From contig JBNJEU010000005.1 in the NCBI GenBank assembly GCA_051746205.1, forward strand, positions 1,344-65,343: a stretch of DNA of 64,000 nucleotides, in the 5' to 3' direction. The notes under the pieces were generated by a model, which was not told the origin of the DNA, did no database searches, and saw nothing but the letters and a program-made list of their open reading frames with translations. Positions 16,521 to 38,996 of the stretch are shown here, piece by piece; the stretch's first letter is position 1; each line of letters starts with the position of its first letter. Source of the DNA: Pseudomonadota bacterium (lineage in GTDB: Bacteria > Pseudomonadota > Gammaproteobacteria > Thiohalospirales > Thiohalospiraceae). The position numbers were made by a program, and so were the translations under genes.

Positions 16521-19500
16521 ATGCGCCTGAGCACGATCAAACTGGCCGGATTCAAGTCCTTCGTGGATCCCACTTCCATCCCCATGCCCAGTCAACTGGT
16601 CGGGGTCGTGGGGCCCAACGGCTGCGGCAAGTCCAACGTCATCGACGCCGTGCGCTGGGTGATGGGGGAGTCGTCGGCGCGCCATCTGCGCGGCGAGGCC
16701 ATGGCCGACGTCATCTTCAACGGCTCGTCGTCGCGCAAGCCGGTGGGCCAGGCCTCGGTGGAGCTGGTCTTCGACAACAGCGACGGCGGTGCCGGCGGCC
16801 AGTACGCCCACTACAACGAGATCGCCGTGCGCCGTGTGGTGACCCGCGACGGGCAGTCCAACTACTACCTCAACGGCACCCGCTGCCGCCGCCGCGACAT
16901 TACCGACATCTTCCTCGGCACCGGCCTCGGTCCGCGCTCCTACGCCATCATCCAGCAGAATACCGTCTCGCGCCTTATCGAGGCGCGTCCCGAGGAGATG
17001 CGGACCTTCCTGGAGGAGGCCGCCGGCATCTCCAAGTACAAGGAGCGTCGCCGCGAGACCGAGAACCGCATCCGCCACACCCGCGAGAACATGGAGCGGC
17101 TGGAGGACCTGCGCGAGGAACTGGACCGCCAGCTTGCCCACCTCCAGCGCCAGGCCAAGACCGCCGAGCGCTACAAGGAACTCAAGGCGCGCGAGCGCGA
17201 GCTGCGCGGCCAGCTCCAGGTGATCCGCTGGCGGGTACTGGACGACGAGTGCGCCGAGCACGACCGCGCCGTGGGCGAGAAGGAGACGGAAATGGAGGCC
17301 GAGGTCGCGCGCCAGCGCCACCTGGAGGCGGAACTGGAGACGCGCCGCGGCGAGCAGGGCGAGGCAGCCGACGCCTTCTCCGAGATCCAGGGGCGCTACT
17401 ACGCCGTGGGCTCCGACATCGCGCGGCTGGAGGAGGCCATCCAGCACGCCCGCGAGCGGCGCGAGCAGCAGGAGCGCGACCTGGCCCAGCTCGACACCGC
17501 CTGGGAGGAGGCCGAGGCCCATCTGGGCCAGGATCGCGAGCGTCTGGAGACCACCGACGCCGCCCTGGCCGAGGGCGAGCCCGAACTCGAACAGCTGGAG
17601 GCCGCCGAGGCCGAGGCCCGCGAGGCGGTCACCGAGGCCGAGGAGGCGTTGCAAACATGGCAGACGGAGTGGGAGGCGGTCACTGCCGATCTCGCCGAAC
17701 CGACCCGCACCGCCGACGTGGCGCGCAACACCCTGCACAATCTGGAACGCAACGCCGATGAGGGTCTGCGTCGGCAGGAGCGCCTGGAGGCAGAACAGCG
17801 GGAGCTGGACACCACCGCGCTCGACGAGGAATTGCATACCATCGCCACCGAACGGGCCGAGGCCGAGGCCGGTCTGACGGACCTGCAAAAGGCGCTGGAG
17901 ACCGCTCAGGGAGAGCTGGAGAGCCAGCGCGAAGGCAATCGAGCGGCGGCCCGGGTGCTGGACGAACAGCGCCAGCAATTGCAGCAGTCCCGGGGCCGGC
18001 ACGCCTCGCTGGAGGCGCTGCAGCAGGCCGCGCTGGGCAAGGACAATGGCGCCGTCTCCCAGTGGCTGGAACGTCAGGGCCTCGGCTCGGCCCGGCGCCT
18101 GGCCGAGGGGCTCGACGTGGAGGCCGGCTGGGGACCGGCGGTGGAGGCCGTGCTGGGAGACAGCCTGGAGGCGGTCTGTGTCGACGGTCTCGATCCCCTG
18201 GCCCGAGCGGTCACCGATCTGACCGAGGGCGGCGTGACCCTGCTGGACACGGGCGGCTCCGGTCGCGATGCGGGCCCCGACGGCGCGACCCTGGCCGGGA
18301 AGGTCCATGCCCCGTGGGACGTCGCCCCGCTGCTGGCGGGGGTGCGGGTGGCCGACGATCTGGCGGCGGCCCTGGCCCTGCGCGAGCAGCTCACCCCGGG
18401 CGAGAGCGTGGTCACCCGCGACGGTCTCTGGCTCGGTCCCAACTGGCTGCGAGTGCGCCGGGACCAGGATGAACGCGGCGGCGTCCTCGAGCGCGAGGAG
18501 GCCCTGCGCGAGGTGGCCGCGACGATGGAGCGGCTGGAAGAGCAGCTGGCCAGCGGCGACGAGGCGCTGGAGGCCGGCCGCCACCGCGAGAGCGAGCTGG
18601 AGCAGGAACGCGACCGTCTGCAGAGCGCGAGCAACGAACAGCACCGCCGGGTCAGCGAACTGCGCAGTCGCCAGCAGACCCGGCAGTCACGGCTGGAACA
18701 GCTGCGCAGCCGCGCTGAACAGATCGAGCAGGAGATCGGTGAACGGATTGCCGAACGCGAGGCCAACGCCGAGGAGCAGGAGGCGGTGCGCGAACAGCTC
18801 AACGAGGCGCTGGAGCGCAGCGAGGTGCTGGCTGCCCGTCGCGACGCTCTGGCCGAGCGGCGTGAACCGCTGCAGCGGGCGGTGGAAGAGGCGCGCCAGC
18901 GTCATCGCGAGGCCGGCGAGGCGGTGAATCGGCAGCGACTCCACCTGCAGGGACTGCGCACCGAACGCGCCTCCATCCAGCAGGCCCTGGAGCGGCTGGA
19001 GGGTCAGCGGCAACAGTTTTCGGAGCGCCGCGATGAGCTCCAGCGGGCACTGGCCGAGGAGGACGACCCGGTGGAACATCGCCAGGCCGAACTGGACCGG
19101 CTACTGACCCAGCGCCAGGAGGTCGAGGCGGCCATGGTCGCGGCTCGCGAACGCAGCGAGGCGGTGGACCAGGCCATCCGCGAACTCTCGCAACAGCGCA
19201 CCGAGGCGGAGCAGAACGCCACGCGCCTGCGCGAGGAGGTGGAGCGCGCCCGCATGAGCGCCCAGGAGCTGCGGGTCCGCCGGGAATCCCTGCTCGAACA
19301 GATCCAGGAAGCCGGCCACGACCGCGATGCCCTGCTGGCGGATCTGCCGGAGGACGCCGACGAGGCCCGGTGGCAGCAGAGCCTCCAGGAGGTGGAAACG
19401 GCCATCTCGCGGCTGGGATCCATCAACCTGGCCGCCATCGACGAATACGAGCAGCAGTCGGAGCGCAAGGTCTATCTGGATCAGCAGCGCGAGGATCTGG

Positions 19501-24326: not shown

Positions 24327-25234
24327 CCCTCTTTGACCTGGTGCTGGTGGCGGGTATCGCCCTGGTGGCCTGGGTCACTCTGATCGATTGCCGACGCTTC
24401 CGGGTCGTTGTGCTCTATGTGGTCTTCGGCCTGCTGCTGGCCATCGCCTGGGCGCGGCTGGGAGCGGTGGATCTGGCGCTGGCGGAGGCAGCCATCGGTG
24501 CCGGCATCACGGGTGCATTGTTCATGGCGGCCCTGGCGCGGGTACGACGTGCCGGCGGGACGCAGGCAGTGGCGCCGACGGGGTCTCTGCTCTGGGCTGC
24601 CGGCGTTGCGTTGCTCGCCGCCGGAGCCGTGGTCTGGGTCCTTGCCGACTGGCCGGTTCCGGCGTGGCCGCCGGTGGCGAAGCACCTTGACAACAGCGGT
24701 GTCGACCACTCGGTGACCGCCGTTCTGCTTGCCTTCCGCGCCTGGGATACTCTGCTGGAGATCGCCGTGCTGGTGGCCGCCGGCTTCGCCATTCATGCTT
24801 CCGGACCGGCACCGGCGCCACCAGGCCATGAAAGCGGCGCCTTGCAGCTGGCCCTGTTGCGGATCGTGAATCCCTTTCTGGTGGTGCTGGCCGTCTATCT
24901 GCTGTGGAAGGGCGGGCACGCCCCGGGGGGCGCCTTCCAGGCCGGGGCGATGCTGGCCGCCGCCGGAATCTTTCACCACCTCAGCCACTTCCCCGCGCCA
25001 CTCGACCGGCCGTCTCCGTGGCAGCGACCCGCTGCGGTCGTCGCCCTGCTGCTGTTCGCGTTCGCCGGTGCGGCGACCCTGGGCACGGTCCCGCTGGCGT
25101 GGCCCGAGGGCTGGGCCAAAGTGTGGATCCTCACCATCGAGGCGGCGGCCACCCTGTCCATCGGTCTGCTGCTGACCCAGCTGTTTGTCGGAGGACGTCC
25201 CCGTTCGCCCGGGGACAATGAGGAGAAAACATGA
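24314..25234 (+). CDS. mnhB: DUF4040 + MnhB fusion subunit
   Basis: AVDLALAEAAIGAG (DUF4040), VTAVLLAFRAWDTLLE and HAPGGAFQAG (MnhB). Confidence 0.85.
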   Translation: MAALTLFDLVLVAGIALVAWVTLIDCRRFRVVVLYVVFGLLLAIAWARLGAVDLALAEAAIGAGITGALFMAALARVRRAGGTQAVAPTGSLLWAAGVALLAAGAVVWVLADWPVPAWPPVAKHLDNSGVDHSVTAVLLAFRAWDTLLEIAVLVAAGFAIHASGPAPAPPGHESGALQLALLRIVNPFLVVLAVYLLWKGGHAPGGAFQAGAMLAAAGIFHHLSHFPAPLDRPSPWQRPAAVVALLLFAFAGAATLGTVPLAWPEGWAKVWILTIEAAATLSIGLLLTQLFVGGRPRSPGDNEEKT

Positions 25235-36156: not shown

Positions 36157-36762
36157 TCAGTCGGGCGATTCGAAAACCGGACCGCCCACCGTGTGGCTGG
36201 TATAGCGCTCCAGGCGCGCCCGTTCCAGCGGGAAATCCGGTGGCAGACCGGCCTTCCGGCGCAACTGGCGCAGAAACTCCGCCGGGTCCGGCAGGCTCTC
36301 CCAGACCGCCGGCAGGAAGGTGCCCCGGTGGCCGTCGGCCTCGAGCACCAGGCCGTCCTCGCCGGGGCGGAGCTTCGACAGCAGATCCGCCTCCGAGGCG
36401 AAGGCCAGCGGTTCCGGCGGCGTCAGCACGGCCACCGAGACATCGAGCCCCTCGAGTTCATCCGGCGTGACCGGCGGAAAGCGCGGGTCCCGGGCGGCGG
36501 CCGCGGCGGCGTTGTGAATCACATCGGCCGCGAGCGGCCGCACCGCCTCCAGTGAACCGATGCAGCCCCGCAGTCCGTCCGCCGCTTCCCCGGCTTGTCG
36601 CTGTTTCAGGGTGACGAAGCTCGCCCCGGGGCGAGCGAGTTCGTCCGGCTCCCGAGGGGGTTCCGGCAGCGGCTCGGCGCGAGCGGTGGCGATCACACCG
36701 GCCCGTGCCAGTGCGAGCAGCGCTTCGCGGGCGGCCGGGGAAGGGCCTTCGGACGCGTTCAT
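36157..36762 (-). CDS. amrA: AmmeMemoRadiSam system protein A (AMMECR1 domain)
   Basis: ASFVTL, LRGCIGS, AARDPRFPPV and GTFLPAVWE motifs. Confidence 0.92.
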   Translation of the reverse strand: MNASEGPSPAAREALLALARAGVIATARAEPLPEPPREPDELARPGASFVTLKQRQAGEAADGLRGCIGSLEAVRPLAADVIHNAAAAAARDPRFPPVTPDELEGLDVSVAVLTPPEPLAFASEADLLSKLRPGEDGLVLEADGHRGTFLPAVWESLPDPAEFLRQLRRKAGLPPDFPLERARLERYTSHTVGGPVFESPD

Positions 36763-37574
36763 GCCGCCACCTCGGAGGTGCCCGGTTCGATGAAGGCGTA
36801 GGCCCCGTAGCCGACCACCTGTTCCGGGCTCCCGGCGGTGTCCGCCGAGGTGCGCCGATCCAGGGTCTTCGCGACCAGGCCGCGTCGACGGGCCACGGTC
36901 AGCAGGCCGTTGAGGGGGGTGCGGCCACAGGCGTTGTCGAAGCCGATGGCGTCGGGGCGCAGCTCCTCGATGGCGCGGGAGGTCGCGCCGTCCAGTTGCC
37001 GGGCGGTGGACTCGTCGTGGAAGTGCGAGAGGTCGGAACTGATCACCACCAGCGTCTCCGGTCCGCCCCACAGGCGGTCGAGGACCTCGGCCACCTCGTC
37101 CGGTTCGGCCTCGCCGACCACCAGCGGCACGATCCGGAACTCGCCGAGGACGCGCTGGAGGAACGGCAACTGGACTTCGAGACTGTGTTCCCGGGCGTGG
37201 GCGACGGCCAGGTTGCCCACCTGGGGCAGGTCGGCGATGGCGGCGATGCCGTCGGTGTCCACGGGGATGTCGCCCAGCGGCGTGCGCAGGGCGTCGACAT
37301 CCGGCAGCGCGAGGCCGCGGAAGGGGACGCGGTGCGCCGGCCCCAGCAGTATGACCCGGCGGATCGATTCGCGCCGGGGGGCCACGGCGCGGTAGACGCT
37401 GGCGGCCACCGGGCCGGAATAGGGGTAACCGGCGTGCGGGGCGACGATGGCCTTGGGTGCCGGGCCTTCGCCGGGCGCCGCCGCGGCCAGATAGTCGTCC
37501 ACCATCCGGCCGAGGGTGCCGGCGTCGGCGGGGTAGAACATGCCCGCCACGGCGGGCTGGCGGATCGCGGTCAC
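36759..37574 (-). CDS. amrB: AmmeMemoRadiSam system protein B (MEMO1 family)
   Basis: IRQPAVAGMFYP, APHAGYPYSG, EHSLEVQLPFLQ, SSDLSH and VVGY motifs. Confidence 0.93.
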   Translation of the reverse strand: MTAIRQPAVAGMFYPADAGTLGRMVDDYLAAAAPGEGPAPKAIVAPHAGYPYSGPVAASVYRAVAPRRESIRRVILLGPAHRVPFRGLALPDVDALRTPLGDIPVDTDGIAAIADLPQVGNLAVAHAREHSLEVQLPFLQRVLGEFRIVPLVVGEAEPDEVAEVLDRLWGGPETLVVISSDLSHFHDESTARQLDGATSRAIEELRPDAIGFDNACGRTPLNGLLTVARRRGLVAKTLDRRTSADTAGSPEQVVGYGAYAFIEPGTSEVAA

Positions 37575-37631
37575 TGTCGTGCTCCCGGACCCCGACGGGA
37601 TCCCATGACGGTCTGAATGATCTATACCTCC

Positions 37632-37660
37632 AATGTAGGATCGAACATGCGACATTCCAA
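37632..37660 (-). promoter_or_regulatory. Putative sigma-70 promoter for amrB-amrA abutting the inverted repeat
   Basis: Minus strand TTGGAA-N17-TACATT; its -35 shares base 37660 with the repeat arm. Confidence 0.5.
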
Positions 37661-37840
37661 GCCGTTCGAGCCCGGGTGGGTGCGGCGGCGCGGGGGATCG
37701 GGTGGGAGGCTCGATCCGGGGGCGTCAGCGGCCATGGATGGCCGCTGTCGAGCTTACATGGATGTATTCATGGCGTCCCCCGGGTCGACGCCCCCCACCC
37801 GATCCCCCGCGCCGCCGCACCCACCCGGGCTCGAACGGCT
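37660..37840. repeat. 181-bp long inverted-repeat element with perfect 47-bp arms
   Basis: 37660-37706 (AGCCGTTCGAGCCCGGGTGGGTGCGGCGGCGCGGGGGATCGGGTGGG) is the exact reverse complement of 37794-37840. Imperfect pairing continues inward for about 20 bp. Confidence 0.95.
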
Positions 37841-37862
37841 GAACAGACCTCGGAGGATGCTG

Positions 37863-38996
37863 ATGACCGACCAGCCCATTCGAACGCCCGGCGAGAGTGA
37901 CCGGCCCGACATCGTGCCGACGCAGTACTGGCATGTGCTCGACGACGGTCGAGTGCAGTGCGATCTCTGTCCACGCTTCTGCAAGTTGAAGGAGGGGCAG
38001 CGCGGCCTCTGCTTCGTGCGCGGCAACGATGGTGGTCAGGTGGTGCTGGCCACCTACGGTCGATCCAGCGGCTTCTGCATCGACCCCATCGAGAAGAAGC
38101 CGCTGAATCACTTTCTGCCCGGGTCGCCGGTGCTGTCGTTCGGGACCGCCGGCTGCAATCTGGCCTGCAAGTACTGCCAGAACTGGGACATGACCAAGGC
38201 GCGTGAGACCGATATCCTGGCCGACTACGCCTCGCCGGAAACGGTGGCACGCACCGCCGAGGCGTATGGTTGTCGGAGCATCGCCTACACTTACAACGAC
38301 CCGATCATCTTCCACGAGTACGCCATCGACATCGCGAAGGCGTGCCGGGAGCGTGGCATCCGCTCGGTGGCGGTGACCTCCGGCTACGTCTCTCCGGAAC
38401 CTCGGGCCGAGTTCTATCGGTACATGGACGCCGCCAACATCGACCTGAAGGCGTTCAGCGAAGAGTTCTATCGCACGCTCACCGGCGGCGAGCTGCAGCC
38501 GGTTCTCGATACCATCCGCTATATTTATCACGAGACCGATGTCTGGCTGGAGCTGACGACCCTGGTCATCCCCGGTCACAACGACAGCGCCGACGAGATC
38601 GCCGAACTCAGCGCCTGGGTGCGTGATGAACTGGGTCCCGAGGTGCCGCTGCACTTTACCGCCTTCCATCCCGACTGGAAGATGACCGATACACCGCCGA
38701 CGCCGCTGGCGACCCTGCGCGACGCTCGCGCCATTGCCCGGGAAGCGGGGTTGCACCATGTCTATCTCGGCAACGTGCTCGAACCGGAGGGCGGGGTGAC
38801 GCGGTGCCACGCCTGTGGTGCCGAGGTCATCCGGCGCGACGGCTATACCCTGACCCACTGGGGGCTGGAGAGCGGTGGTCGTTGTGCCCAGTGCGGGGCG
38901 GTGGTGTCCGGGGTGTTCGAGGCGGAGCCCGGCGACTGGGGGAGTCGGCGGCAACCTGTGCGCCTCGCCTCGGAAAAAGGGGACAGTCCCGTTTAA
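37863..38996 (+). CDS. amrS: AmmeMemoRadiSam system radical SAM enzyme
   Basis: [33 protein letters not shown] (CxxxCxxC) and LHFTAFHP motifs. Confidence 0.93.

Follow-up and report, generated by a model that had tools for sequence, protein, structure and literature searches.

The divergently oriented genes amrB and amrS, in the stretch of 64,000 nucleotides analysed here (the window), are separated by a 181-nt near-perfect hairpin (37660-37840), which raises the question of whether this structure belongs to the AmmeMemoRadiSam system encoded on both sides of it or has some other identity. We conclude that it belongs, as an ordinary member, to a widespread repeat/RNA family already known and is unrelated to AmmeMemoRadiSam function. 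That it is a TwoAYGGAY-type repeat without specificity for the amr genes seems to us very likely; taken as a whole, the explanation that we prefer, a copy of a high-copy dispersed element of this type, is probable. The parts of the locus, in window coordinates, are the following:

36759-37574, minus strand: amrB, MEMO-like AmmeMemoRadiSam protein B (TIGR04336, 245 bits, 8e-73)
37575-37659, no strand: portion of the amrB/amrS spacer to the left of the element, sharing ~88% identity with the closest congener (G004)
37660-37840, plus strand: whole element, one copy of the dispersed repeat, of probable TwoAYGGAY type, with its core in plus orientation
37660-37722, plus strand: 5' strand of the basal stem, G-rich and copy-specific, its outer 47 nt perfectly paired
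37723-37750, plus strand: core hairpin 1, with the terminal loop AUGGAU at 37734-37739 (alignment A2)
37752-37774, plus strand: core hairpin 2, with UUACAUGGAUGU at 37754-37765 and a second AUGGAU at 37758-37763
37777-37840, plus strand: 3' strand of the basal stem, C-rich, complement of 37660-37722
37852-37865, plus strand: amrS Shine-Dalgarno sequence GGAGGA (37852-37857, starting 11 nt past the hairpin) and ATG (37863)
37863-38996, plus strand: amrS, AmmeMemoRadiSam radical SAM enzyme (TIGR04337, 619.6 bits, 1.3e-186; PF04055)

The hairpin itself is as the original prediction had described it. An inverted-repeat search delimited two arms of 51 nt (37660-37710 and 37790-37840) that are 98% complementary, and the perfect 47-bp arms that had been claimed were recovered by BLAST, in which the left arm found its partner over 47 nt with 100% identity (contig C5, 39137-39183, corresponding to window 37794-37840). 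A 33-mer from the arm is present exactly on both strands and otherwise absent from the window (0 expected). The proposed folding of 37645-37865 with RNAfold gave -183.5 kcal/mol, against -104.6 ± 5.2 for shuffled sequences (z = -15.3, with 0 of 200 shuffles folding equally well), and the opposite strand folded about as strongly. The inward extension of the stem was also confirmed: it runs on to 37722/37777, interrupted by few mismatches, and within it lie two small hairpins, which both the MFE and the centroid folds of the window copy place in sequence on a single basal stem, the second of them with a UUCAU bulge at 37767-37771. The edges of the element carry no target-site duplication, as had been noted before (TTCCA and GAACA flanks), and no direct repeat is present between the flanks ...CGACATTCCA on the left and GAACAGACCT... 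on the right. In Rfam, the window copy matched plant and animal miRNA-precursor models, VA RNA and the like, all far below their thresholds; we discarded these matches, which are expected of any long hairpin.

Is the hairpin unique to this locus? The source genome (G000; 2.06 Mb, 67% GC, 125 contigs, 99% complete) yielded about 30 further matches to a query with the whole element, centred on its apical part, and the ~67-nt core was found in 58 copies by sensitive blastn and iterated nhmmer and in 57 by R1, a covariance model that we built from 106 copies (alignment A2). R1 recognizes the window copy at 37696-37801 (83.8 bits, E = 3.7e-22), and exact-match and R1 searches of the window found a single copy of the core, the one in the amr spacer. 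The copies are spread over more than 40 contigs, and about a quarter of them lie at contig ends, so the element evidently breaks the assembly and the true copy number may be higher. Contigs that end inside an element include C65 (26-102), C77 (7178-7250), C61 (40-112), C96 (7-78), and C82 (3-69); since loci L154 and L155 of the closest congener bridge C77 to C65 and C61 to C96, respectively, the members of each pair are probably adjacent in the genome.

This dispersal bears directly on the novel reading that the original prediction favoured, namely that the hairpin is a leader or substrate RNA specific to the AmmeMemoRadiSam enzymes, a cognate structured RNA of the system. In its favour, the element lies between amrB and amrS, in the orientation of amrS and, as predicted, with a gap of 22 nt between its end (37840) and the amrS ATG (37863). 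However, a search for dispersed copies had been set beforehand as the test of the amr link, and only one of the 57-58 copies found adjoins amr genes, the remaining ~56 lying beside unrelated genes. Furthermore, in three congeners (G001-G003) amrB and amrS are arranged in the same divergent way, the spacer being ~175 bp shorter (170-184 bp) and devoid of the element, and the family occurs across Gammaproteobacteria irrespective of amr genes. Because of the copies beside unrelated genes and the element-free amr spacers of these congeners, the amr-specific reading is unsupported; as a general association it is already refuted, and we consider it very improbable as an explanation of the hairpin. 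What is thereby removed is a tempting but wrong lead, a structured RNA dedicated to the uncharacterised AmmeMemoRadiSam system.

What all copies have in common is their design. We folded the 45 copies with full flanks, and in 44 of them the core caps a long stem with almost perfect pairing (medians of 47 arm pairs and a span of 156 nt). The cores share a mean pairwise identity of 0.86, in contrast with arm identities of 0.49-0.55, close to those of shuffled arms (0.45-0.47), and a single arm pair out of 946, the window copy against C8:40564, exceeds the shuffled maximum. No two copies share arms, and in BLAST searches with all arms each one matched itself and its partner arm and nothing else in the genome, for which reason we rejected the idea that the arms are guides or captured sequences. 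Thus, the arms are not conserved terminal inverted repeats, and the conserved part of the element is its asymmetric tip. Its most conserved block, GAGCCUACAGGGAYGUAUUCACGGCGU, lies in the hairpin 2 region, and the loop sequence that reads AUGGAU twice in the window copy is AGGGAU or AGGGAC in most other local copies. The G-rich arm (with more G than C) is 5' of the core in 40 of the 45 copies. When the genome was scanned, palindromes of similar length that lack the core were absent, apart from a second repeat family that has a core of its own, and ordinary terminators have stems of 14-20 bp; an insertion of the core into pre-existing long palindromes was discarded on these grounds.

These features allow two of the classes proposed for the hairpin to be judged. 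The term MITE, the nearest of five options in the original prediction, is only partly right, since the arms vary from copy to copy and conservation is confined to the apical core. The invertible segment is unsupported, the polarity of core to arm being the same in 40 of 45 copies. This fixed polarity applies also to the broader proposal that the hairpin is either an invertible segment or an artefact of assembly: long inverted repeats can mediate inversion, chimeric assembly can make palindromes, and many copies are found at contig ends, but 45 internal copies have unique flanks, and an element is present at the same junction of an independently assembled congener, with orthologous copies at six other loci. 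We regard this proposal as the least credible of those considered here. Two pairs of copies are arranged divergently ~50-75 nt apart (C2:18198-18358 on the minus strand with 18410-18556 on the plus strand, and C10:24723-24875 on the minus strand with 24952-25067 on the plus strand), resembling the divergent TwoAYGGAY doublets of Pseudomonas (10.64898/2026.09.22.753630).

Is it the DNA palindrome or an RNA fold that is being maintained? Across the 106 aligned copies, the three-helix structure has 83.9% of its cells paired, against 57.8% after shuffling. The covariation check that had been suggested revealed changes on both sides in 24 of 24 modelled pairs of the basal stem and in 7 of 10 pairs of hairpin 1 (alignment A2, 106 copies), with a covariation score of 0.619 against 0.168 for column shuffles (0 of 500 reach it) and 0.12-0.21 when the partners are slid; this covariation concerns the basal stem and hairpin 1 and not hairpin 2, since the class-wide copies were chosen by a pattern that spans the latter. 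Arm mismatches are also unequal between the strands. Class-wide, those on the core strand comprise 136 of the G:U type and 41 of the A:C type (p = 4e-13), an excess not expected of a palindrome maintained at the DNA level, so that pairing appears to be selected in the RNA of the core strand; in the source genome alone, the figures are 29 and 18, which is not significant (p = 0.14). The aligned copies thus indicate that the fold is kept by compensatory change in a strand-specific, RNA-like manner.

The opposite position would be that the element is selfish DNA, a MITE or cruciform-forming palindrome devoid of RNA function, whose arms are kept complementary by DNA template switching in quasi-palindromes. 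Several observations agree with this: the two strands fold equally well, assemblies are interrupted by copies at contig ends, presence and absence vary between congeners, and the G:U bias over A:C falls short of significance in the source genome taken alone. However, DNA correction does not predict the class-wide strand asymmetry, the asymmetric core is 90-99% conserved while the arms drift, and the G-rich arm has a preferred side. Nor do the copies have conserved terminal repeats, a target duplication at the amr copy, or a cognate transposase (we found no transposase associated with the copies and no Y1 transposase gene in the genome). A purely selfish palindrome is therefore, in our view, rather improbable.

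How the arms came to differ so much can be followed at six loci that carry the element in both the source genome and its closest congener. There, substitutions and even indels in one arm are mirrored in the partner arm, and the two genomes share identities of 0.90-0.99 (core), 0.52-0.86 (arms), and 0.61-0.84 (300-nt flanks). Because the arms diverge about as much as the flanks, age and maintained pairing suffice to explain the differences among arms, and we abandoned the notion of an exotic, fast arm turnover or of a special arm-generating mechanism. The simplest account would be that the copies are old, that their stems drift at about the local background rate and yet stay paired, and that the tip is under purifying selection. 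Loci filled in one of these two genomes and unfilled in the other are too diverged to define insertion boundaries. At C19:21287-21323, a plain hairpin with a 14-bp stem lies downstream of a gene, and the orthologous spot of the congener (L149:552-744) is occupied by a full element with unrelated arms, a difference that may stem from replacement, from loss, or from an independent gain. Near another copy, at C3:68007-68102, we observed a hairpin made of long G- and C-runs, CCGGTG(18-20)...C(18)ACCGG, and at the amr locus the arm of the congener also consists almost entirely of G; both may reflect slippage-prone arm evolution.

At the amr locus, the amrB start is most likely the GTG at 37574, from which the translation begins ...V-TAIRQPAVAGMFYP, and the spacer part to the left of the element (37575-37659) is the likely seat of both the amrB and the amrS promoters. 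A simple scan of 37450-37950 for the sigma-70 consensus found 0 sites, and the previously suggested CTGAAT-N17-TAGGAT (37613-37641) did not pass it, which is weak evidence either way. In the closest congener, the contig contains amrB and the 85-nt left spacer at ~88% identity up to the junction between TTCCA and AGCCG, where it enters a G-rich left arm, similarity drops, and the contig ends; an element at the same junction of an independently assembled genome means that it is present at the same site in both assemblies. Given its absence from the other three congeners, the amr-locus element was presumably either gained in the ancestor shared by the source species and its closest congener or lost from G001-G003, and in the scenario that we favour it would have entered the spacer in that ancestor. 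The spacers of G001-G003 are about as long as the window spacer minus the whole hairpin, and not minus the core plus one arm, which led us to reject an origin of the arms from local target DNA. A search of metagenomes for an empty-site allele with an exact 22-mer of the left flank gave 0 matches. If the amrS promoter does lie in the conserved spacer, the amrS mRNA starts with the hairpin; the amr copy, with its core on the amrS strand, after the conserved spacer and before the Shine-Dalgarno sequence, may thus form a local dsRNA leader, and amrS mRNA probably carries it as a structured 5' leader.

We examined the gene context of the copies with our own GC-frame gene caller, which is crude at gene starts. 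Of the 38 that have a gene on each side, 15 are in convergent spacers, 20 in tandem ones, and 3, the amr copy among them, in divergent ones. At least one gene ends upstream of the copy in 35 of the 38, and the tandem copies are mostly within ~30 nt of the upstream stop codon or overlap it. Therefore, the element usually sits against the 3' ends of genes, which recalls where REP elements and other hairpin repeats are located (PMC3733652; PMC2229807). According to the same crude gene calls, 7 of the 20 tandem copies are co-oriented with their genes and 13 are opposed, so that simple read-through of 3'-UTRs cannot supply sense RNA everywhere. Such a distribution invites the view that the element is a REP-like 3'-end module, in which the long hairpin halts transcription or acts as a barrier to 3' exonucleases, the GGA loops being incidental, the more so since related MITE/REP families are reported to stabilise or destabilise upstream transcripts (PMC3733652; PMC2229807). 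However, the strongest constraint falls on the two loops and hairpin 2 and not on the stem, whereas a plain terminator needs no conserved tip; in addition, a scan of the amrB/amrS spacer found no terminator consensus and no U-tract, and the amr copy is located upstream of a gene. As a full explanation, the 3'-end module appears unlikely to us, but it is compatible with a TwoAYGGAY-type element and does not exclude it.

Two other sets of repeats were observed in the genome. The second family already mentioned follows the same design, with a different conserved core of ~125 nt (...GGCGCACCGAGCAGCGCAGG...GGGCACCCGAAGGGTGCGCC...) on perfect, copy-specific arms of 33-44 bp. It has six full copies (C62:4064-4279, C8:52881-53095, C9:50324-50555, C16:30654-30850, C52:9950-10150, and C46:10979-11195) and a short form (C13:26889-27007), has no match in Rfam, and at locus L148 of the closest congener is found directly beside a copy of the family described here. 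A short palindrome, AAAGGGGAC(A)GTCCCCTTT, recurs at C41:8156-8233, C41:4013-4068, C54:8256-8306, C19:30463-30497, and C65:1179-1223 and may be a terminator-like small repeat.

Beyond the source genome, the core is present in five of five genomes of the genus and absent from all 12 genomes sampled in two sister genera. A 27-nt degenerate pattern derived from the most conserved block (GAGCCTRCANGGANGTATTCACGGCGT) was found at at least 120 loci in named genomes, nearly all of Gammaproteobacteria; among the matches listed are Methylotuvimicrobium, Marinobacter, Stenotrophomonas, Lysobacter, Shewanella, Halopseudomonas, Oceanimonas, Aquisalimonas, and Nitrococcus. In almost all of the matches listed, the core caps a perfect stem whose sequence is unique and follows the base composition of the host.

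The family that this architecture recalls is TwoAYGGAY (RF01731), listed for gamma-Proteobacteria, Clostridiales, and the human gut (Weinberg et al. 2010, PMC2864571) and defined by two consecutive hairpins, each with an AYGGAY loop, that share one basal stem (10.64898/2026.09.22.753630; PMC2864571). It has been described as multi-copy and mobile-like, of unresolved function, with its loops proposed as Csr/Rsm sites (bioRxiv 10.64898/2026.09.22.753630). At E ≤ 10, the RF01731 model gave no match in 37300-38200 of the window or in the whole genome, its gathering threshold of 43 bits thus not being reached. The same model matched six of eight other genomes carrying the core pattern, with four matches over threshold, in Pseudomonas saudimassiliensis, and of the 12 RF01731 loci that we fetched, seven have a core-HMM match at the RF01731 position and sequences of the same plan. 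Our model R1 connects the two sets: L166 and L172, two loci over the RF01731 threshold, score 56.5 and 52.4 bits with it, respectively, and sub-threshold RF01731 loci score 64-101 bits. Judging from these matches, we assign the element to a predicted GC-rich, long-stem form of TwoAYGGAY in the broad sense, its link to RF01731 running through R1 as a bridge model, while the threshold of RF01731 itself was not reached. AYGGAY motifs occupy both terminal loops in the window copy and only partly so family-wide. One consequence is that the RF01731 model of Rfam misses GC-rich members of the family.

What might such an element do? The predicted unit is a rod-like RNA with a long basal stem, a three-way junction, and two small hairpins with A(Y/R)GGAY loops. 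When transcribed, its two GGA loops would act as a two-site clamp for a CsrA/RsmA dimer, and its long stem would protect or terminate the transcript. The CsrA SELEX consensus is RUACARGGAUGU (cited in PMC4347634); hairpin 2 agrees with it at 10 of 12 positions in the window copy (UUACAUGGAUGU) and at 11 of 12 in the family consensus (CUACAGGGAUGU), hairpin 1 reads CA(U/G)GGAUG, and the GGA motifs of the two loops are ~23 nt apart. The genome has one csrA gene (96.8 bits). Based on this motif match and on the presence of csrA, binding by CsrA is a tentative mechanism, to which we give somewhat less than even credence, although a two-site clamp for the CsrA dimer on a nuclease-resistant rod, already proposed in the literature, would be the best-supported model of function. 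A further extension is speculative and appears improbable: in this genus the element would have become a dsRNA rod of ~65 bp, a portable two-site CsrA clamp in the 5' leader would subject amrS to regulation by Csr or RNase III, and the ~57 copies would together constitute a genome-wide CsrA buffer. In any case, this small genome offers a clean TwoAYGGAY data set, with ~57 long-stem copies, drifting but paired stems, and tips 90-99% identical, and it lends itself well to testing the proposed CsrA/RsmA binding directly.

Like the Csr/Rsm sponge sRNAs (CsrB, RsmY/Z/W), the element has GGA motifs in hairpin loops, but those sRNAs are single-copy regulated genes with many GGA sites, whereas here ~57 dispersed units have two sites each; an RsmW-like match scored 14.8 bits, far below its threshold of 52 bits. 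From classical MITEs, whose terminal inverted repeats are conserved between copies, it is separated by arms that resemble one another hardly more than shuffled ones do. With REP/REPIN sequences it shares a high copy number, a palindromic structure, and a location mainly after genes and between convergent genes (PMC3733652), and the antisense strand of its core reads GTAG followed by a palindrome, as in REPs; however, REPs are 20-40 bp long and have a conserved stem, whereas in our element the stem varies between copies and conservation lies in the loop region, and the RAYT transposase (Y1 HUH, PF01797) had 0 matches in the 99%-complete source genome, the control genomes being positive.

The Yersinia palindromic sequence YPAL/RU-2 (~168 bp; De Gregorio 2006, Delihas 2007; PMC2229807) is, like our element, a GC-rich intergenic hairpin repeat of ~170 bp; it is described near dyad symmetry, located next to genes and co-transcribed with upstream ones (PMC2229807). 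YPAL, which we compared by its description only, makes target duplications of 3-26 bp, and none is visible at the window element; the Ysr224 model (RF02770), whose gathering score is 70 bits, reached 20.9 and 29.1 bits over the element, these weak matches being antisense to the core. The closest agreement is with TwoAYGGAY, in the two hairpins on an elongated basal stem, the AYGGAY-type loops of the window copy, the multi-copy nature with varying copy number, and the occurrence in Gammaproteobacteria. The differences are that most local copies have AGGGAY loops, that the basal stem is about twice the class-wide length (median ~47-49 bp against ~25 bp), and that the extra 3' hairpins, the pseudoknot, and the flanking arrays of 5-6-mers of Pseudomonas TwoAYGGAY are not seen here. 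The TwoAYGGAY-type element of the amr spacer appears to belong to a family related to the YPAL/RU-2-like hairpin repeats described earlier.
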